This document shows, piece by piece, positions 17,139 through 62,859 of a DNA stretch of 64,000 nt. Source of the stretch: Picochlorum sp. SENEW3. Taxonomy: Eukaryota. The notes beneath the pieces were generated by a model. That model worked only from the letters and a program-made list of their open reading frames with translations, ran no database searches and had not been told where the DNA came from. The translations under genes were made by a program, and so were the position numbers. Positions within the stretch are counted from its first letter, which is position 1, and each line of letters starts with the position of its first letter. The DNA is taken from positions 992,001-1,056,000 of the forward strand of contig CP120457.1 in NCBI GenBank assembly GCA_034226945.1, read 5' to 3'.

Positions 17139-19505
17139 ATGGGGAGTCTGGACCAATTCTCAAGTAAAGATTTTGATCCAAAGACCTTTATTAATGGGTT
17201 ATGTGAATCAAAACCAGAGGATGCGTCGCTTGATAGGTACGATCGTGACATTTCATGATTGATGTCGTCAATTATATGCTATGAATACGTGCCCGATGAC
17301 GATACTATTTGAATATATACACAGATTTCTTACGGATCATGAGATGAAACTGCATATCGCGGCAGAGGACCTAGGTCTCTACTTGCACGAGGAGTCTCTT
17401 CGTTCCACTGTGAAGCTTCCATCAGCTGCGCGAGAGCTGGCTCGAATCAAAGAGGAAGTATCTGTTGTCAAGATGGGTGTGGAGTCAGCGTTGCGAGGTG
17501 TGGAGTCGAAGAGCCGAGACCACCAGGCGAACGGTGTGTACTTGGAGTTGCAGCAGTTGGTTGAACTGAAGACACGGATGGAGTCTGCAAGGGATACGTT
17601 GCAAGAGGCTGCGAGCTTATCCTCCATGTTCAAGACAATAGATTCTATGCTTCATAGCAATGATTTAGTGCGACTTGCGGATGCGCTGCAGAGATTTAAT
17701 AGAGGCCTGGCGATTGTTGGGGATTCGCTGGTGGAGTTCAAGCGAGGGAGGGACAAGGTGGCCAACTTGGAGGAGAGGGTCCTTGATCTTGCCGTTCAAA
17801 AATTGGATAATGCTCTTAAAGTACAAAATGGGGATCATTGTCGCACTGCCTGCAGCGTGCTGGATCAGCTGGATAGAAGTCAGTTGATAGCCCAGCATTA
17901 TTCCAAAATTCGATCAGAACCTCTCATAGAAGTTTGGGATGGATACTCGCCAGAGAATCCATATGTTTCGTGGATCCCAGGTTTTTATGACGAAGTGTTG
18001 CGTTCTATATCTACAGAGTGCGATTGGTGTGAATCGTACTTGCCAGAGTATTACCCTAGTATTGTCTTGGATATGTTGATTAGCTTTTTCAGGCGTATAG
18101 AAGTTCCGTGCAAAGCGCGTTTGGCTGGGGCGACGTCTCAGTCATCCATATCATCTTTGCAGTCGATTGAGGCTATGGCGCAGTCTGTTGAGTCGACGGC
18201 GGATTTTGTTGATGCGCTGTTTGACTGCCTGCGAGATGCACATGCTCTTGGCAATCAGTTGGGTGAGAAGGATCTTCTCAAAGCTATCATCGTGCCATAC
18301 GATGATGTGTTGAAGAATTACCCAGCGAAAGAATCGAGTCATATGAAGTATACGCTCGAGCATCAAATGGGCTTGGGTATGTTGGTGTACAGATGCCCTG
18401 TTTGTGTCTTGCTGATGTCGTTCATGGTTTTTTTATTTGTCTTGCAGTTACGAAATCGCTCGCAGCAGGTGTTGAATCGAAAGAGGATGTGCTTGAAAAG
18501 TCGTTGGAGATGGTATTTGGCATGGTTGTTGACAGTCTTCAGCGTTGTTTCTCTACAACAAGAGGAACAAGTTTGCCTGAGATTGTCAAGGTTATAGATG
18601 GTGTGCTTGAGACATACATCAGTACTTTGGCTAGGACTGTAAAGCCCGAATTGTTCTACTCTAAAGAAGACTCTAAAGCATCTGTAGTGACTCATGACTT
18701 TGCTGCAATGTTGTTTTTGCCTCCTCTGCTAGCAAAGATTGAGGCACACATGGCAGCTTTGCATGGACAGGTGAAGGACCGTGTCAGGAGCCTGTCGTCT
18801 TTGGTGGAGAAAGATGTCAGCGGAGAACTACTACTTCGAGGATCAGAGTTTCTCAATGTCGCGCGTTTGTCTTGGAACATTGATCTGAAGAGATCAATTG
18901 ATGAGATGTGCTCGAAAGATGATGTTGCATTGTTAGGAAAAGCAGAGGCTTCGCTACAATCGTTGTCTAATCAGATTGATTTAATGATTGAAAAATCATT
19001 TATTGATAAGCTTGAAGAGTATTTTGGAATGTCTCTGCCCAGAGAATATTCTGCAGAACCAAAGGCTGCCACAGACACATTATCATTTTCAGCATATCCG
19101 CTTCAGTATGTCATATCTGCTGGAGAGCAGCTGATGATGTTACCTCAACTCTTTGAGACAGCCTGGGGCTCCAATGAAACTGATGAAAATATGCAAGAAG
19201 ATATGATTGGAGACTGGATTGACAGGCTTGCAGCTTCATCTGCATCACTGTATGCAAAGTATTTAGGGCAGATCACATCGCTGCCCACGGAGAGCTCACG
19301 CCAGCTTACAGCTGACATCGAGTATTTTTGCAACATATTGAGCTCCCTGGGACAGGAAATTCCCGTTTCCCTTAGTGCCTGGCAAGCAGCTTTAGCAGCA
19401 TCTGATTCTGAAGCTATGAAATCACTAATCAGCAGAATTGATGATACGAGTGATGGGCTGGACATTGTCATGCTTGTGTCGAAATTGAGAAATATAGATT
19501 TGTAA
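17139..19505 (+). CDS. COG7: Conserved oligomeric Golgi complex subunit 7; introns 17237-17324 and ~18377-18447
   Basis: N-terminus MGSLDQFSSKDFDPKTFING..LDR|FLTDHEMKLHI. Also KTRMESARDTLQEAA, FSAYPLQYVISAGEQLMMLPQLFE and QLTADIEYFCNILSSLG. Confidence 0.9.
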
Positions 19506-27863: not shown

Positions 27864-29250
27864 ATGGGAGAAGCAAGAGCAGAGGAGCAGCAGGTGGTTG
27901 CATTGGCTTCCACATCTGGAGCAACGGATGCTGTGAATAGAAGAAGGCCTGTTAAGAGGATTGTAGGGCAACAGGTAAAGAATTCATGATTGATTTGAGT
28001 CTTGTATGCGTGGGCTATAGTGTCATGCACGGACATGTGTTGCAGATACCTGACGATATTTTGAAGAATGAATCGTTGAATAATGCGATTTCTATTCTTC
28101 CATCGAACTATAATTTCGAAATCCATAAGACTGTGTGGAGATTGCGACAGGCAAAGGCGAGGAGAGTGGCGCTGCAGTTTCCTGAGGGACTGTTGATGTA
28201 TTCGTGTGTGATTGCAGACATTTTGGAGAGTTTTGCGGGTATAGAGGGAGCACTCATCATGGGAGACGTGACATTTGGTGCTTGCTGTGTGGATGATTAT
28301 TCAGCGGAGGCGTTGGATGCCGATTTTTTGGTACATTATGGTCATAGTTGTCTGGTTCCTGTGAATGAAACTCGGATTCCGTGCATGTATGTTTTTGTCG
28401 ATATTAAGATGGATTTGGAGCATTTTGTGGAGTCTTTCAAATTGAATTTTGATCCATCGATGCGGATTATCTTGGCTGGGACCATCCAGTTTGCTAGCTC
28501 AATGCATGCAGCCAAGACAATGCTGAGTGCAGAGTACCCTCATATAACCGTTCCTCAGTCGCGGCCTCTGTCTCGTGGAGAAACGCTGGGATGCACAGCA
28601 CCTGTTGTTCCTGGGAAACATGATGCGATTGTGTTTGTCGCGGATGGCAGGTTTCATTTGGAGGCACTCATGATTGCAAACCCATCAGTCAAGGCATATA
28701 GATATGATCCCTATGGAAGGGTGTTCACTGAGGAATCGTATGACCAGGTGGGTATGAGGAAACAGCGACAAGAGGCAATACAGAAAGCTCGAGGTGCAAG
28801 ACGCTGGGGTATTATATTGGGAACATTAGGACGGCAGGGTAATCCAAGGATTCTTGACAAGGTGAAAGGAATCATGGATTCGCTTGGGTATGAATACGTG
28901 CTGGTGTTGCTCTCTGAGATCTCTCCTCAAAAGTTGTCGATGATGTCGGATGGGATTGATGCGTGGATCCAAATCGCATGCCCTCGTCTGAGCATTGACT
29001 GGGGAGATGAGTTCACCAAGCCAACATTGAATCCATACGAGGTATGTTTTGTGAAACAGAAGTACTTTTTCTTGAAGTGTTACGTATTGAAATATATGAA
29101 AACTTGAATATTGTACAGGCATTTGTGGCGTTGGGGCAGATTGATGGCTGGTGGGAAGGTGGCAGTGATTATCCAATGGACTATTACGCGTCTTCAGGAG
29201 GTGAATATAGCAGTTCATACCATAGGAAAACACCACAACCAGCCCGTTGA
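27864..29250 (+). CDS. DPH1: Diphthamide biosynthesis protein 1; introns 27975-28045 and 29042-29118
   Basis: Motifs LPSNYNFEIHKT, VALQFPEGL, GDVTFGACCVDD, HYGHSCL, GETLGCTAP, ILGTLGRQG, ACPRLSIDWG and YPMDYY. Confidence 0.96.
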
Positions 29251-36549: not shown

Positions 36550-39500
36550 ATGGCACTGTTTGTGCCATTCCGAGCTCTTGGTCTCGTGACCGAGGATGCT
36601 CCGTTTGTTACCCAGAGGAGAGGTAAAGAAACATTTATAACATTGAGTGTGGGTGACTCATGGCAGGTATGTTTTAATGGGGTGATTGTTCAGAAGACGA
36701 TCAAGAGTGGCATGCATGTGTGCCAGAGAGAAAACTGCTTCTCACGATTTCATTTCCATATATTCAGATTTACAATGCATCAAATCTGCGATTGCGGTTA
36801 ATCGGACCAAAATTGAAGGGAGATATCACGTCTCTGGGGTGCAAAGGCGATTTGACATTTGCTGCCGTCGGGGAACGAATCATTGAGACGCGAAGGGTTC
36901 ATATTCAGGGGGTCTATCGGTCTTCTGGAGGTACTGTTGAAGAGATCATGGTATTAGGAGATTATGTTATCGGTAGGACACGTGCAAGGCAGGTGTTGGT
37001 GTGGAGCATTGGAGACTATGGGGAGCCAGTGTCAGAGTTGGACCTTGGGGATGATTTTACCCCAACGTGCATGGCTCACCCCCAGACATATCTGAATAAG
37101 ATTGTGATCGGGTCGAGTGATGGACGTATGCAATTGTGGAATTTTGTGTCGGAGAAAAAGGTGTATGAGTTTGCATCGCTCAACTCTGGTGTGTGCTGCA
37201 TTGTTCCCTCTTCTGCACTGGATATTGTCGGTATTGGTCTGGGTGATGGCCGAGCTATTCTCAAGGACTTAAGGCAAGACAAAGTATTGCTTGAACTTAG
37301 GAATGCAGCTGGGTCTGGGACCAAGGCGGACAGATTTCTGTCAAAGTCTGCAGATGAGGTGTCACACAGATCTGCTCATAGTCCATGTACGTGCATTGCT
37401 TTCAGGACAGGGGAAGGCCTTCCGCTGATGGCAACCGGGGGTACAACTGGAGTAATCTCTGTGTGGAATTTAGAGTCTCAGAGTTTGCATGCCATCATGA
37501 GAGATGCTCATGATGGGCCCTTGACACGGTTGGAGTTTCTTGGAGGCCAGCCGGTGCTGGTTTCTACTGCACGGGATAATAGCGTGAAGGAATGGATATT
37601 CGATGGGACAGATGGACAGCCAAGACTTCTTAGATATAGAAGTGGCCATGCGTTGCCGCCTACAATCGTGAGGCATTATGCAGATAGCACACGGTTGCTC
37701 TCTGGTGGTCAAGACAGGGCATTTAGGTACTTTTCGGCTATTCAGGATGCACAAAGTAGAGAAATGAGCCAGGGTCACATCCAGCGTCGAGCGAAAAAGT
37801 TGAAAATTGCAGAACAAGAATTAAAGCTGCCCAGAATAATTAGCCTGGATGCATGCGATGTTCGAGAACGAGATTGGTCGAATGTGATTACGGCCCATGA
37901 AGATGATTGTGTGGCCTATGTGTGGAGGATACAAAAGTTTGCGCAAGGCGAATTTGCGTTACTTCCTCCAAATGTCGAGAAAGAATCCTTGACTCCAGCA
38001 TCATGCGTCTGTCTCAGTACATGCGGGAACTTTGGGTTTGTGGGTTCTTCCTCTGGAAGAATTGATAGATACAACATGCAATCAGGGCTTCATAGAGGGA
38101 CCTATCGCTGCCCTGGCGGATTCTCTGCTCACTCGGGAGCCGTTACAGGTCTTGCAGCTGATGGATGCAACCGTTACCTCGTTTCAGGAGCGCTCGATGG
38201 TCTATTGAAATGTTGGAATCTCAAAAACCTCACGCTTGAAGGCCAGGTCGATGTGGGGTCAAAAATCAGCAACATTGCCCTCCACCCAACCTCGTGTCTT
38301 GCCGCCGTTGCCTGCGATGACTTGAGCATTAAAATATGCGATGTGGAAGCTCGGACAATCGTGAGACGATATAGAGGTCATTCAGATAGGATCACAGATC
38401 TGCAGTTCAGCGAGGACTGCAGGTGGTTACTGACCTCCAGTATGGACAGCACGCTCCGCATATGGGATGTTCCAGGTACGTTTACGTCAACCCACTATCT
38501 ATAAACATGGCATAATACACACGTATCGGCAATGATGGTTTGTCTCGTTCGTCGTAATGCGATTCCTACCAAGATTCACAAGCTTGACGACAAGCATTAT
38601 ATCACCACCCATAAACTGAGCCTTTACTCTAACCCCATGAACTGTTGCAATGATGTTACACTTTTATTAATACACGTTAGACTACGGATTGGCTTTGCCA
38701 AAATGAGTTATAACTCTCTTTCTGAGCAACATGTTGTTTCCTGGTAGAATTCTGACCTTGATGTGGACGTGTATGAAAATGATGATGTATTTCATTGCAT
38801 GCAGGATCCACAATTTTACAAGTACTCAAGATGGACTCGCCAATCACATCACTTAGTTTATCACCTGCAATGGATATCCTTGTCACCACACACGTGGAGA
38901 AGAGGGGATTATACACATGGGCAAATGGACTCATCTTTGGTACAACAGACGCTATTGAGGCTTCTGATACACCGATTTCGATCAAGATTCCAGACATGTC
39001 TTCAGCAGATATTCAGCATGACAAAACATCACGTCGTGATTCCCAAAGGAGTACCATGTTGCAGCATTCGAGCATGCCACATCAGGAATCTACTCCAACA
39101 GCATCCGAGAATTCATCCGAGGAGATTCATCACCGTGTTGATCTCTCGGATGATGCATCGACAAGCTCAGACTCAGAAGTAGATGATGCAATGGAAAGCA
39201 ATGATACGGTGAGCATGAATGATCGAGATGCCCATGTCTTGACAGGAACTGCCCCAGTGGCACCTGACATGATCACTCTCTCAATGCTCCCAAGATCACA
39301 GTGGCTAAATCTGGTACATATTGACACAATAAAAACTAGAAATAAACCAATAGAGCCTCCAAAAAAGCCAGAAGCTGCTCCATTCTTCCTTCCAACCGTG
39401 GCCGGGGCCAATGCAGGAAGAGACCCAGTATTTGCTGTACCAGATCCTGACAGCCATGGTAGTGATGATGATGTCCGAATCGCCCAACGAGCCGCGGCTG

Positions 39501-39985
39501 CTTGGGGAGATGATGATGATACTATTATACAAGAGGAGGATCAGCAGCAAGACGACAGCAGGGTGAGGAAATCCAAGCCTGGAAAGAATGGGCACCTGCT
39601 CTCCTCTTTACTGGAGACATACACACAGCACAAAACATGGAAACCTTTGCTAGAGCATCTCACATCCCTGTCTCCATCTCAGCTCGACGTTCAATTGAGA
39701 AGTTTGGATTTATCAGACCAGGGCGAGGACCATGAAACAGACATGCTTAATTTCCTATCCTTTCTCTCTGACGCAATTGCCTCAGACACCCACTTTGAGT
39801 TCCTCCAAGCCCTTCTTAGAGCATTTATTCTCATCCACGGAGAATCAATTGCCCAGTACCCAAGGATACAAGAGCGAGCTCAGTTTGTTGAGGAACAAAC
39901 ACACAAAGCTTGGACCAGACTCGAACAGGCACTCCAGCATACCCTCTGCATGATTGGCATCTTGGGAAGCATGCAGCAGACATAA
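36550..39985 (+). CDS. WDR36: U3 snoRNP-associated WD40 protein UTP21/WDR36; introns 36667-36767 and 38476-38804
   Basis: Motifs LFVPFRALG, HPQTYLNKIVIG, PRLLRYRSGH and REMSQG; Utp21 C-domain LSMLPRSQWLNLVHIDTIKTRNKPIEPPKKPEAAPFFLPT. Confidence 0.95.
38528..38622 (+). ncRNA. Intronic box C/D snoRNA (two 18S rRNA guides)
   Basis: GGC/GCC terminal stem, C box ATGATG (38532), C'-like TGACGA and D box CTGA (38616). Guides GTCTCGTTCGT and CACCACCCATA are antisense to conserved 18S ACGAACGAGAC and UAUGGGUGGUG. Confidence 0.85.
38644..38730 (+). ncRNA. Intronic box C/D snoRNA (LSU rRNA guides; snR58-like D' guide)
   Basis: GTTGC/GCAAC terminal stem, C box ATGATG (38650) and D box CTGA (38722). Guides ATACACGTTAGACT (vs LSU AGUCUAAC) and TAACTCTCTTT (vs LSU AAAGAGAGUUA). 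Confidence 0.87.
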
Positions 39986-54289: not shown

Positions 54290-54664
54290 TATCTCGTGCT
54301 GACGAATAGTACACTACTTGCATACGTCGTATGAAATACTATTTTTTTCATATTGTAACTCAAAGCTCTCTTTATCTCTTTATTTATATGTGTGTGTGAA
54401 GTAAGGTATGTTGTTCCCTGAAGATCTCTCTCTGTTTGAACTGGACCAGACCACCCACACCGGATGGGGACCCTACCAGGCGTCAACTTCGTGTCAGCCA
54501 CATTGTCTAACTTATATATGCATACTGGGCTGTATAATATCGCTCGTATAAGCCTCAAAATCCTTGGTATAGGCCAAAATCACAATTCGATATGTTTATA
54601 TTAGTGGAAAAATTCGGGATTGACATTCACGTAGTTTCTCGCGCATGTCCCATGCGGTGTAGCC

Positions 54665-54770
54665 ACCAATAGGTCCCCCGTTCGACTCGGGGTGGTCGGA
54701 CTATCGATGTCTCCATTCATCTAATGGATTCACCGACCATAGCTCAGTTGGCTAGAGCGATTGGCTGTAA
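54665..54770 (+). tRNA. Circularly permuted tRNA-Tyr(GTA): 3' half at 54665-54700 precedes 5' half at 54733-54770
   Basis: 5' half CCGACCA-TA-GCTC-AGTTGGCTA-GAGC-G-ATTGG-CT-GTA-A. 3' half A-CCAAT-AGGTC-CCCCG-TTCGACT-CGGGG-TGGTCGG-A. All four stems pair perfectly, and the C1-G72/A73 Tyr identity elements are present. Confidence 0.92.
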
Positions 54771-54778
54771 ACTTCATC

Positions 54779-54783
54779 TTTTT
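54779..54783 (+). terminator. Pol III terminator (T5) of the permuted tRNA
   Basis: TTTTT 8 nt after tRNA position 37. Confidence 0.7.
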
Positions 54784-54901
54784 GCGTCGTTTTTGATCCA
54801 TGATCCACCGCAATATGTGCACATGGCCAGCAGGAGACTGCTGCTGCAAGACTGCCTCAGTCTTCTACAAATGTTGACTTCTTCGATGATGTTTTGCATC
54901 G

Positions 54902-54955
54902 CACACACACACACATATATTTCGAGAGAGAGGGTAAAATCTATAGCATTCTGGG

Positions 54956-54986
<31 letters not shown>
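54902..54986. repeat. (CA)n/(TA)n and (TA)n(TG)n microsatellites in inverted arrangement
   Basis: cacacacacacacatatat ... atatatatatgtgtgtgtgtgtg. Confidence 0.85.
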
Positions 54987-55252
54987 AAGAGAGCGAATCG
55001 AGACTGGTGTTTTGTATTGAGAGCCAGCTCTTGGGATTTTGGGCGCCACTCGTGATCATCCACCTCGAGGTGGTTGGTTGGTCGGTCGATACCCTTGATG
55101 CAACGATAGGTGGATGGACAAGCATGCTTTGCGCATGATAAGAATTAAATATTACATTTGGAATATTTGACAGGTATCGAACGTGGTATCGAGTCTGCCG
55201 GTGTGTCAGTGGTCACAACGACGAGGTGGATTTTTCTCTTGGATACTAGACA

Positions 55253-56530
55253 ATGACAGACAACCATAGCAAGCTTGCTCTTAGAGATCTTAGCAATATT
55301 CAACATGGAAATAGCATTGTGGGGAAGAAGGGGGTGTCGTTGGACTCGGTGTCGTCGGTTGGTGCGTGGTTGTCATGTGGATGGGTACTTGCGGTATACT
55401 ACTGCTACTGACGTATGTGAAATATTGCAGATATCAGTGCGCTGATGAAAAAAGCCATGTCTACGCAGCAGGATAATGCATGTCGGCCTCGAAAGGAAGC
55501 GACGGTGGCTGTGTATCAAGATTTTGATGACAAGGAAAATGCAGTGGGACAACGTACGTCTGGTGGCAATGGAAAGAAAGGGCTTGGTCATCGGCGCCCA
55601 GAGACGAGGAATAGTATGGTTCAGAGGCCGGCGCGATATGGTGATTGGTTTGATGGGGATGATGCTGAACTGGAGAAGATGGTTGATGAATTCAATGACG
55701 AGCAGGTACAACAAGGGAACAAGAAGGATGGTTCGGATGTGGCTCGTCATGTGAGGGAAATAGCGGATGGATTGTGCAGTCAGTTGGACTCTTTGATTGA
55801 TGAGAGTGAGCTGGAGGGCAGTGCTGATGAGCAGAGTTTGCGGGACAAGTTGTTGGAGTCTTGGGAGGGCAAGAGTTATTACGATAGGCTGCTGCAAATG
55901 ACTGGTAGCAATGAGACGACTAGTACATTGATTCAAAAATCGCTGGAAAAGCAAGGGAAGGCACGCTGCCAGCAAGACAAGGCGGGGAGTCCATCTGATT
56001 CTTCTGATAGCATGCACTCCACAGAGCCGCTCCTTTCTCCTCCAAAAAGGAGGGGCCATAGATCAAAGCAACAAAGCCTTGAAGTGAAAATACCAGACCA
56101 TCCTCTGATTCCAGAGGAAGCATTGACTGTAGTAGACAAGAATAAAAGGAGCACAACTCAAAAGCAGCAACCGACTGGGCCAGGGCTATTGAAAGTGTCT
56201 GCTCGTGGGTCAAAAGCGGGAATGGCACCGTGGGAAACAAAACAGGACAGTACGATGTCTCGCAAAGCCCAGGCTGCGAGGAAGCAGCTTCGCAGCCATC
56301 AAGGAGCCTATGCAAGTGCAGAAGGCAGTGCCAAAGCCCTTGGGATGAAATTGTCCAGCCTCAAGGAAAAGCCGGTATCGTTGAAACATGCGACTGAAAT
56401 AAAAAAGGAATACGACGCAATGCATTCAGAGGTGCAATCTTTGCTCGCAGCCGTGACCAGCCTTGCCAGCAGCATCTCTGCTGGCAGGGCTCAGATTGAC
56501 ACTGTTGTGACATCACTTCAAAAGGACTAG
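55253..56530 (+). CDS. Hypothetical protein with C-terminal coiled coil and APC/C degron-like motifs; intron 55362-55430
   Basis: G|GTGCGT..TTGCAG|AT joins exon 1 (KLALRDLSNI) in frame to the 361-aa ORF containing DKEN. Confidence 0.7.
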
Positions 56531-60134: not shown

Positions 60135-62859
60135 TTACATGTGTATATTCCATATTTTAACCGAATGATCATCCCCTACACTGGAAATCTGGTGTTGCCC
60201 TGGTCGCCACTGGACACGTCGTACTGCAACAGCATGCTTCAGGTGCGCTGGAGAGGCATATACCAACTCAATACACTCCGACACGTCTATAACCTCTTTG
60301 AATCTATAGACATGCACATGCCCGTTCTCTAGTCCTGCCGCTATGAGTATAGCTTCTCCATCTTTCTGGCACGACACACTGTGCACGCTTGACTCACAGG
60401 ACATCTTTCCAACAGACGTCTCATCCGCGATCCCTTGTGCATTGACCTTCCAAACTTTGATTGTGGAATCTCGAGACGCTGTCACTATGTATTTGGAGTC
60501 TGGACTCCATGCTAAACCCCATATGATCCTTGCGTGAGCCTTCACCAGACATGCTCTTGAAAACTCAATCCCAGAGCCCCTTTTAAAGATGCACATCTTC
60601 CGATCCCTCCCCGCAGATGCCAAAAGTTCCCCACAAGGAGAAAATTCGAGATGCGTGACGGTCAAAGTATGGCCGTCCAATGTTTCTGAAAGGGTCCAGG
60701 ATTCTGTATTCCAGACAATAATACCTGCAGTGGAAGCAGATTGTGCCCTGCTCGCTGAAGCAACACAGTCACCCCTTGGGCTTGCCGCTACACAATACAC
60801 ATCATTACCATGACCATAAAGCTTGTGAGTTTCAGGCCATAGTGTATTCTGAGATAAATGCTCCTCGAGTGGGGGGCAGGTAACCACAGATGGTGCTGAC
60901 GTTGGGGCCAAATCAGCTCCATCATCATACCCACCACCAGACTGCTCTCTATCACCTTGATCCTCTTCATACAGCACAGCTTTGTTTGATAGTCCAAGCG
61001 CCGGCAAGGTGGCCCCCAATGCTCCACCAGCCTGCTCCTGTGAGAGGGCAACATCGTGTCCTTGCGCTGCCATCAATGTATCCAAAAATGCCCATGGGCT
61101 TTCAAACACTCGTAAAACCTTCTCCTCACTCCCACTGACGTACTTGTATTTCGATGCATCACCAGGCGCAGATACCATCGCGGCACAACTGAAATCATGT
61201 CCATGTATTTGCGGACGGGCAATTTCACACCACTCTCCCTGCGCCCCTGGCTCTGGCCGACTCTCTGTAAAAATTCTCGCGGTCTGATCTTCACTCACAG
61301 TCAAAAGAAACAAACCATCTCGAGACCAGGATGAGTCAACAACCGGTCCCATGTGACCACTCCCAGCAGTCCTTGGAATGAGAGAGCCATCCACACGATC
61401 CCACACATGGAGAGCACCAGTGTACCCGTGCGCAGCAATAGAACTCCCATCACAACTCCACGTGCACGTATAATATCCCAAGTGATTGATTCCAGCATCC
61501 CCAACAACTTCTGACGACAGCCAAACCCCTATACAGAATGATTACAAAGAATGTCATGCATCATGCCAAACCTCGACACACATTACGATATATACATGAC
61601 GAGAAGAACAGCATAACACATTATTACTCTAGCATTGCTTTTGACACCGCATGCCACGACATATATCGACAATGAGGTGCTTCGAACAATGCATATTCCA
61701 CCTTTCAGCATTCAATCACCACACACCTGATTGAACATCCTTCTTCCAAAGGATCATGGTTCTATCCATCGACGATGACAAGAGCGTGAGATCAGAAATA
61801 TCACTACATCTCTTCATATTCCACGCCACACGCATCACCCAGTCCTCATGCCCCACGAGCAATGCTTCCAAAATCACAGTGTACGCTGGCCTACCATTGA
61901 CTCTGATTTGAGGCTTTGGAGCATACTTTGTAATACCCAATTTGCTCAGCATCGAATCACCTTGACTCTGTTCACTCGATGAATCCTCAATAGACCACAG
62001 TCGAACATATCTATCCTGACTGCCAGTCGCCAGCATGAGCTTTTTGTCTGCCACATGAACAAAATCAACTCCCCGAATCCAATTCTGATGACCAGACAGA
62101 ACGCATGCCAGCGTAAAGGAAGACAATGATCCTTTCTCATCCATATATAGCTTTACCAATCCATCCACATATCCCATCGCCACCAACACAATACCATGAT
62201 CACGCGCACTGGGATGCGGCAGCATTCCAATGGCAGCACAATGAACCAACTTTGTCCCAAAAGACAGCCGCTGTGTCTCCTTACAAGACACCACATCATC
62301 CACAATATCCACGCCATACACCACAGCATCTCCATCCCCGCCTCCACTCACTAACACAAAGCCACCATGCCCCATACACTCCACTGCAAGACACGTCACA
62401 GGCCCACCATGCCCCTCCATCTTCAGGCACAACTCCCATCCACACTTCTCACGGACCTTCCAAACACAAATACACCCATCTCCTCCACCTGACACCAGAA
62501 ATCGGCCATCAGTACCACGACGACCGTCAGGCAACCACACCACATTCGTCACCACATCCTCGTGACCCAACAGCGTCCCCTCTACCCTTCCATTCTGCAG
62601 ATATCATGGTATATAGTAGTATTATATGCACATATATACGTCTGTAAATAAGATACCAGTCCCATCCCACCGCAACAGGGGGCATGTCATGCAGCCATGC
62701 AGCAAAATTCAGACAGCAAGAATAGCAAGAAAAAGCTCGCACCTGAATATTATACAGCACAACTACCCTATGAGATCCAAATGCAACAATTCCTTCGTCA
62801 TTCCATGTGATATTCCCAACGCATCGGTTGCAACCAGCACTTGTATATTCCAACTCCAT
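60135..62859 (-). CDS. ELP2: Elongator complex subunit 2 (WD40); introns ~62596-62742 and 61529-61726
   Basis: Motifs SAGCNR, LSGHQNWIR, ATGSQDRYVRLW, EALLVGHEDWV, EIARPQIHGHD, SGSEEKVLRVF, LPALGLSNKA and PPLEEHLSQNTLWPETHKLYGHG. Confidence 0.96.
61549..61693 (-). ncRNA. Intronic box H/ACA snoRNA, snR34/U65-like
   Basis: Hairpin 1 (GCATTG..CAATGC), H box AGAGTA, hairpin 2 (ATGTGTTATGCTG..TGGCATGATGCAT), then ACA+3 nt. Pocket TCGAAG/TCAAAA is complementary to LSU UUUUGA-U-C-CUUCGA. Confidence 0.82.

Follow-up and report, generated by a model that had tools for sequence, protein, structure and literature searches.

Transfer RNA genes whose two halves stand in reversed order were tabulated in 2014, when 34 such permuted genes were listed, 32 of them eukaryotic (Soma 2014, PMC3978253, Table 1). 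Their eukaryotic hosts in that tabulation were Cyanidioschyzon merolae, two Ostreococcus, two Micromonas, and the nucleomorph of B. natans (PMC3978253). The green-algal genes are nearly all of type II, with spacers of 5-64 bp, and tyrosine is represented by none of the 32 eukaryotic genes, the sole tRNA-Tyr in the tabulation being archaeal, a type IV gene from Thermofilum pendens (PMC3978253, Table 1). In the algal cases a linear precursor is cut by the splicing endonuclease, closed into a circle by a ligase, and then processed by RNase P and tRNase Z (PMC3978253, section 6). The junction described for green-algal type II genes has the hBH form (PMC3978253, section 8), and the permuted genes of C. 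merolae are preceded by TATA-like elements (PMC3978253, section 5). Elsewhere, seven permuted tRNA genes were counted in Bathycoccus (PMC3673656), the permuted gene of the virus BpV1 encodes tRNA-Thr (PMC3673656, Supplementary Table 5), the tRNA-Tyr of O. tauri appears among the genes that are not permuted (PMC3673656, Supplementary Table 4), and permuted tRNA genes have been reported in Auxenochlorella UTEX 250-A (Craig et al. 2025, Plant Cell, PMC12636532). The last report makes outdated the statement in an earlier note on the DNA studied here that no gene of this kind was known from a trebouxiophyte.

The window, i.e. the whole 64-kb stretch of DNA that was analysed, is a compact eukaryotic nuclear region of 45-48% G+C, whose long open reading frames (ORFs) include those for an M1 peptidase, a NIPA transporter, ATG13, an mTERF protein and a photolyase, among others. 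A Dph1-like ORF (27956-29107) encodes a product that shows 99% identity to a protein carrying the name Picochlorum sp. BPE23, and its next named matches, at 66-70%, come from Micractinium, Trebouxia, Parachlorella, Coccomyxa and Chlorella, which agrees with the recognition of the host, in the earlier note, as a trebouxiophyte-like alga. Picochlorum strains are used as production algae. Several other features of the window deserve a mention in their own right. Two C/D-box snoRNA-like matches on the forward strand (38527-38623 and 38642-38732; snoZ43 with 41.7 bits against a gathering score of 43, and snoR64 with 37 bits against 45) lie in the gap that separates ORF pieces 36678-38504 and 38786-39985 of a Utp21/WDR36 gene and are probably snoRNAs encoded in an intron of this ribosome-biogenesis gene. 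An H/ACA snoRNA-like match on the reverse strand (61547-61694; snR46 with 33.5 bits and TB11Cs5H3 with 36.3 bits, both below the gathering score) lies between the WD40 ORF pieces 60135-61541 and 61716-62603 and is probably intronic as well. COG7 is spread over two overlapping forward-strand ORFs in different frames (17263-18597 and 18306-19505), which suggests an intron or a frameshift.

The subject of this analysis is a locus at 54608-54783 of the window, which in our opinion is very probably a functional, circularly permuted nuclear gene for tRNA-Tyr(GUA), of type II (37/38), in a Picochlorum-type green alga. This reading, made from the DNA sequence, is supported by the anatomy of the locus and by its conservation in relatives. 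Its parts are as follows:

54608..54615, forward strand: AAAAATTC, candidate for a TATA-like element upstream of the gene, between 57 and 50 nt ahead of A38
54627..54664, forward strand: conserved 38-nt leader, with a hairpin (54642-54647/54651-54656) and with bases 54659-54662 able to pair with the anticodon loop
54665..54700, forward strand: 3' half of tRNA-Tyr(GTA), which runs from A38 through the 3' strand of the anticodon stem, a variable loop of 5 nt, the T arm and the acceptor 3' strand to the discriminator A73
54701..54732, forward strand: spacer (intervening sequence) of 32 nt, containing a 6-bp hairpin and no T-run
54733..54770, forward strand: 5' half of tRNA-Tyr(GTA), which runs from the acceptor 5' strand through the D arm and the 5' strand of the anticodon stem to the loop bases C32-A37 including GTA
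54771..54778, forward strand: trailer, whose first five bases, ACTTC, are conserved and which could pair with leader bases 54652-54658
54779..54783, forward strand: T5 run, probably the terminator for RNA polymerase III; within 54560-54830 no earlier run of at least four T occurs

On a single strand, the 36-nt 3' half is thus followed by the 32-nt spacer and only then by the 38-nt 5' half, which consists of positions 1-37 and one additional D-loop base; the 3' half encodes no CCA. When the halves are joined by their coordinates, ARAGORN calls a tRNA-Tyr(gta) of 74 nt in which all four stems are fully paired. The layout of a permuted tRNA-Tyr(GTA) gene, as it had been proposed in the earlier note, holds in all its coordinates and pairings, from the perfect cloverleaf of the rejoined halves, through the spacer hairpin (54712-54717/54723-54728, 6/6 pairs), to the T5 run eight bases past A37. 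The joined tRNA carries U8, A14, G15:C48, G18G19, U33, T54-T55-C56, and C1-G72 with A73. The combination of C1-G72 and A73 is the tyrosine identity set of Eukaryotes and Archaea, and the 5-nt variable loop marks the tRNA as of the cytosolic type, not a bacterial or organellar one.

The gene escapes standard tRNA scanners, as had been expected: in the unaltered 64-kb window ARAGORN reports no tRNA genes and Rfam gives no matches at the gathering score, its tRNA model RF00005 matching the 5' half only, with 12.6 bits. A permuted-tRNA scan of the window, in which 8,584 acceptor-type hairpins were reduced to 92 by a filter for a T arm or a D arm and then expanded into 116,380 ARAGORN trials of joined sequences, gave a tRNA call from the locus 54665-54770 only. 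Within the window each half is single-copy at up to three mismatches (0 of 100 shuffles matched), and the content of the window in this respect amounts to one permuted tRNA gene and no conventional one. A conventional, intron-containing tRNA-Tyr gene was also considered as an interpretation of the locus and rejected, as the order of the halves is reversed and neither ARAGORN nor the Rfam tRNA model finds a gene. Two papers on Picochlorum genomes relied on tRNAscan-SE only (PMC6141220, PMC11092101), and the nuclear tRNA counts obtained with that program for three Picochlorum genomes are 42, 24, and, in P. soloecismus, 75 (PMC6141220, Table 1). Low counts of this kind fit the presence of hidden tRNA genes. 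Annotations of Picochlorum that are based on tRNAscan-SE probably do not contain the gene described here, and perhaps miss others like it; among the papers listed by a search of the literature, none reports a permuted tRNA gene in Picochlorum.

The earlier note had further proposed that the leader pairs with the anticodon loop and with the trailer, so as to form a relaxed bulge-helix-bulge (BHB) at the 37/38 junction. The pairs themselves are present: C32, U33, G34 and U35 face leader bases 54662-54659 as C-G, U-A, G.U and U.G, and six of seven pairs can be formed between trailer 54771-54777 and leader 54658-54652. A junction can be drawn from them, with a 3-nt bulge (C, C and A38) that contains the 3' cut site directly before A38, and with a 4-bp helix that includes two G.U pairs. 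As regards energy, on the other hand, the proposed motif gains next to nothing: the four-pair helix alone costs +2.2 kcal/mol in nearest-neighbour energy, addition of the leader-trailer helix brings the net gain to about zero (-30.0 versus -29.9 kcal/mol), and the conserved leader hairpin, worth -7.1 kcal/mol, competes with the proposed outer helix, with which it shares bases. If the leader is taken from 54652 onwards, it is predicted to pair with the trailer, but with a longer leader the hairpin wins; the junction structure formed would depend on where transcription starts. Among the three sequence versions compared (the window and the two relatives called X9 and L001 below), the leader and trailer hardly vary, so they offer no covariation for any junction structure. 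What these models indicate is that an hBH-type junction can form at 37/38, a strict bulge-helix-bulge being the weaker reading.

The conservation of the locus was studied in four public sequence runs (X2, X9, X16 and X17), all of them consisting of contigs, which were compared over 54300-55300, and in a metagenome contig, L001, which was found by a pattern scan and is far more diverged than X9. A contig of 296 nt from X2, a metagenome of another study, covers 54627-54922 without a single difference. A contig of 395 nt from X9, labelled as another organism, covers 54565-54932; compared with the window, it carries 20 substitutions and 8 gap letters. Of the substitutions, ten fall in 54582-54626, five in the spacer (54703, 54705, 54711, 54716 and 54723) and the rest from 54789 on. 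Both 54627-54702 and 54724-54788 are free of them, which leaves the leader, the two halves, the trailer and the first T-run untouched. At the 8-12% divergence of the remaining columns, the 74 nt of the halves would escape change with a probability of 0.0015 to 0.0001. In X16 the 5' half is identical to that of the window, and the X17 contig covers only 55152-55300; the contigs of these two runs show no joint at the tRNA and, as contig data, have no bearing on expression.

The pattern scan of metagenomes gave three loci (L001, L002 and L003), of which only L001 is a homologue, and it gave no matches in genome contigs and none in viral contigs. L001 has its halves in the same order as the window. 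The columns identical between the two number 36/36 in the 3' half, 38/38 in the 5' half, 36/39 in the leader, 15/32 in the spacer (29 nt in L001 versus 32 nt in the window), 9/13 in the trailer and T-run (54771-54783), 72/133 in the upstream flank and 50/138 in the downstream flank, which corresponds to an identity of 36-54% in the flanks. The ORF upstream in L001 shows no similarity to the M1 peptidase of the window (E = 0.14). The upstream divergence stops sharply at 54627 in a variant contig of X2, in X9, in X16 and in L001. The halves together are identical at 74 of 74 positions both in X9 and in L001 while the spacer and the flanks diverge, which argues for selection on the gene; to judge from this pattern, both halves, the leader and the terminator are kept by selection and the spacer is free to change.

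A few observations made in the course of these comparisons stand by themselves. In X2 there are two variants upstream of the gene (54532-54656), with 1 and 17 differences, and both merge into the contig that is identical from 54627 to 54922. About 130 nt downstream of the gene lies a compound microsatellite of CA, TA and GA repeats (54899-54997), at which the contigs of all runs break or vary and which yields weak matches to miRNA models on both strands. The other two loci of the pattern scan, L002 (1226-1271, reverse strand) and L003 (3-48, forward strand), belong to dense arrays of tRNA genes, of which ARAGORN finds 6 and 8 within 1.3-1.4 kb. These arrays start with a T arm and the 3' strand of an acceptor stem, followed 11 nt on by a 5' strand complementary to it, with a D arm and one half of an anticodon arm, and then directly by tRNA-Leu(taa). 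The contigs are cut inside the T arm, and this start could be another permuted gene or a relic of a tandem.

Against this background one may ask whether the locus could be a dead relic, i.e. a tandem pair of tRNA-Tyr genes that was rearranged or half deleted, with tyrosine decoded by a normal gene elsewhere. The energetic weakness of the BHB speaks for such a reading, but a pseudogene would decay like its flanks, whereas here the halves have remained intact in both X9 and L001 next to a spacer and flanks that diverge strongly, and the leader and terminator are conserved too. Moreover, the flanks contain no detectable relics of the lost outer halves (1,343 to 1,975 of 2,000 shuffles aligned to the halves as well). 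We regard a dead relic as very unlikely, and return to the functional permuted gene.

How this gene would be transcribed can be judged from its signals. No run of at least four T occurs in the leader, the halves or the spacer, in the window and L001 alike, and L001 has a T4 at the place that matches the T5 of the window. Since in both sequences T-runs are lacking before the trailer and one follows directly after it, the arrangement fits a single RNA polymerase III transcript. The element AAAAATTC is unchanged in the X2 variant contig, in X9 and in X16, and is retained in 8/8 positions in L001, and the positions on either side of it (54603-54607 and 54616-54626) vary. Because of this conservation, and by analogy with the TATA-like elements of the permuted genes of C. 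merolae, we propose that AAAAATTC acts as a TATA-like promoter element. A second conserved block, AATATCGCTC, lies at 54536-54545, about 120-129 nt upstream of A38, and is common to L001; one X9 contig has a change within it, at 54539. A scan for promoters and terminators of the bacterial type, which is not relevant to RNA polymerase III, found nothing near the gene.

The leader shows no differences in X9 and in the X2 variant, and the stems of its hairpin (54642-54647/54651-54656) are the same in L001, where the loop differs in sequence and has 4 nt instead of the 3 nt found in the window. The spacer hairpin is predicted in all three sequence versions (window, X9 and L001). Neither the leader nor the spacer folds better than shuffled sequences (z from -0.18 to -1.05, with 30-73 of 200 shuffles as good); in particular, 44/200 shuffles are as good as the native leader, and 30 and 44 of 200 as good as versions of the spacer.

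The same signals bear on the notion of a split tRNA, with its halves made as two transcripts that are joined in trans, the arrangement known from Nanoarchaeum. In principle the A box, which lies in the downstream half, could direct a start within the spacer, and the ability of the leader and trailer to pair also speaks for this reading. The halves, however, are only 32 nt apart on one strand, no T-run follows the 3' half, and the spacer is the least conserved part of the locus and holds no conserved element; a single transcript is the rule in all known algal cases (PMC3978253, section 6). We give separate transcription an even smaller chance than a dead relic.

A non-coding RNA of another kind, similar to tRNA but never matured to one (Y RNA-like, with the topology of YrlA), is suggested by a database match, in which the locus 54652-54780 aligns end to end with the Rfam family YrlA (RF02553), with 28.6 bits and E = 0.00016 in a 221-nt search. 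This score falls well short of the gathering score, which is 69, the family is bacterial, and the match rests on the T arm, the closed acceptor stem and the D arm, which are common to any permuted tRNA; in addition, the anticodon stem of the locus is complete and its loop has U33, GUA and A37, features for which a Y RNA has no need. The match is taken as an echo of topology, i.e. of the order of T arm, closed acceptor stem and D arm, and not as a sign of membership, and the probability of this reading is slight indeed. Finally, the swapping of the halves by an assembly error, which had been a concern before, is ruled out for practical purposes, since the same order is seen in three other data sets, namely in the independent X2 contig that spans the locus with 0 differences, in X9 and in L001.

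For the permuted gene, then, a pathway can be proposed by analogy with C. merolae and the prasinophyte cases, from which transcription, the circular intermediate and the enzymes are inferred. A single RNA polymerase III transcript would start downstream of AAAAATTC and end at the T5 run, giving a linear precursor made of the leader, the 3' half, the 32-nt spacer, the 5' half and the trailer. The tRNA splicing endonuclease would cut it before A38 (between 54664 and 54665) and after A37 (between 54770 and 54771). For guidance it would rely on the fold of the mature domain together with an hBH-like motif that pairs C32 with the leader G located three bases before the cut. The tRNA ligase would then join A37 to A38, yielding a circle of 74 + 32 = 106 nt, in which the spacer would form a loop closing the acceptor stem. 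RNase P and tRNase Z would remove the spacer at 54732/54733 and 54700/54701, after which CCA would be added. The A36-A37-A38 motif has a role in the formation of i6A37; since it is split between the halves, a modification that reads it could act only after ligation.

As to the origin of the gene, tRNA-Tyr is the classic intron-bearing tRNA of eukaryotes, and the site of its intron is the 37/38 junction at which the halves are split here. In land plants the intron-bearing families are those of Tyr and elongator Met (bioRxiv 10.1101/2021.12.21.473619). In the model proposed for permuted genes, a gene with an intron is duplicated in tandem and the outer halves of the pair are then lost (PMC3978253, section 10). 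The exact split at the position of the eukaryotic tRNA-Tyr intron fits such an origin by duplication and loss.

Several wider suggestions can be made, although we consider it rather doubtful that all of them hold together: that this is the sole tRNA-Tyr gene of Picochlorum, that permuted genes are common in trebouxiophytes, that the leader and AAAAATTC form a dedicated module, and that a helix stands in for the intron. If the gene were the sole one for tRNA-Tyr, every tyrosine codon would depend on a route through circular RNA, and if permuted genes were general in trebouxiophyte genomes, they would explain low counts by tRNAscan-SE. To go by sequence features, the 38-nt leader with its hairpin may serve, together with AAAAATTC, as a dedicated upstream module for promoter function and processing, in place of the inverted A and B boxes. 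Other eukaryotes need the tRNA-Tyr intron for the formation of pseudouridine-35, and in the permuted gene the leader-anticodon helix may replace it, which makes this tRNA-Tyr a natural test of whether such a helix can take the place of an intron.

Among the described systems, C. merolae is the only one in which the circular intermediate, the aminoacylation and the role of a TATA-like element have been studied (Soma et al. 2007, in PMC3978253). Six of its 11 permuted genes are of type II, like the Picochlorum gene, but it is a red alga, its genes also have junctions at 20/21, 50/51 and 59/60, some contain extra introns, and none encodes tRNA-Tyr (PMC3978253). The permuted gene of T. pendens shares with that of Picochlorum both the amino acid and the anticodon, being a tRNA-Tyr(GTA) gene (Chan et al. 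2011, in PMC3978253, Table 1); it is, however, archaeal and of type IV (59/60), has a 1-nt spacer and a 59-nt intron at 37/38, and encodes CCA (PMC3978253), and the resemblance of the two is clearly independent. Auxenochlorella is similar in that it also belongs to Trebouxiophyceae and in that its permuted genes, with halves reversed, were missed by tRNAscan-SE, and differs in being another genus and in the permuted gene displayed for it, which is trnP-UGG (PMC12636532, Supplementary Fig. S1).

The type II genes of mamiellophytes resemble the present one in being green-algal and nuclear, in having the 3' half first and in the 37/38 junction (PMC3978253, Table 1), and their spacers of 11-64 bp include within their range the 32 bp of Picochlorum (PMC3978253). 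An AT-rich element upstream, a T-run downstream and the lack of CCA are common to both, and the hBH-type junction of these genes is one that can be drawn for the Picochlorum gene as well (PMC3978253). The mamiellophyte genes differ in that they encode other tRNA species, whereas the host of the present gene is a trebouxiophyte, and the conserved 38-nt leader with a hairpin is a feature of Picochlorum that is not described for them (PMC3978253). Permuted tRNA genes having already been reported in green algae, Auxenochlorella included, the locus analysed here adds Tyr and Picochlorum to a known kind. The eukaryotic cases on record are few, and this amino acid and this genus are thereby added to them; together with Auxenochlorella, they extend the trait past the prasinophytes into the core chlorophytes, which bears on the question of an ancient versus a repeated origin of permutation in the green lineage.
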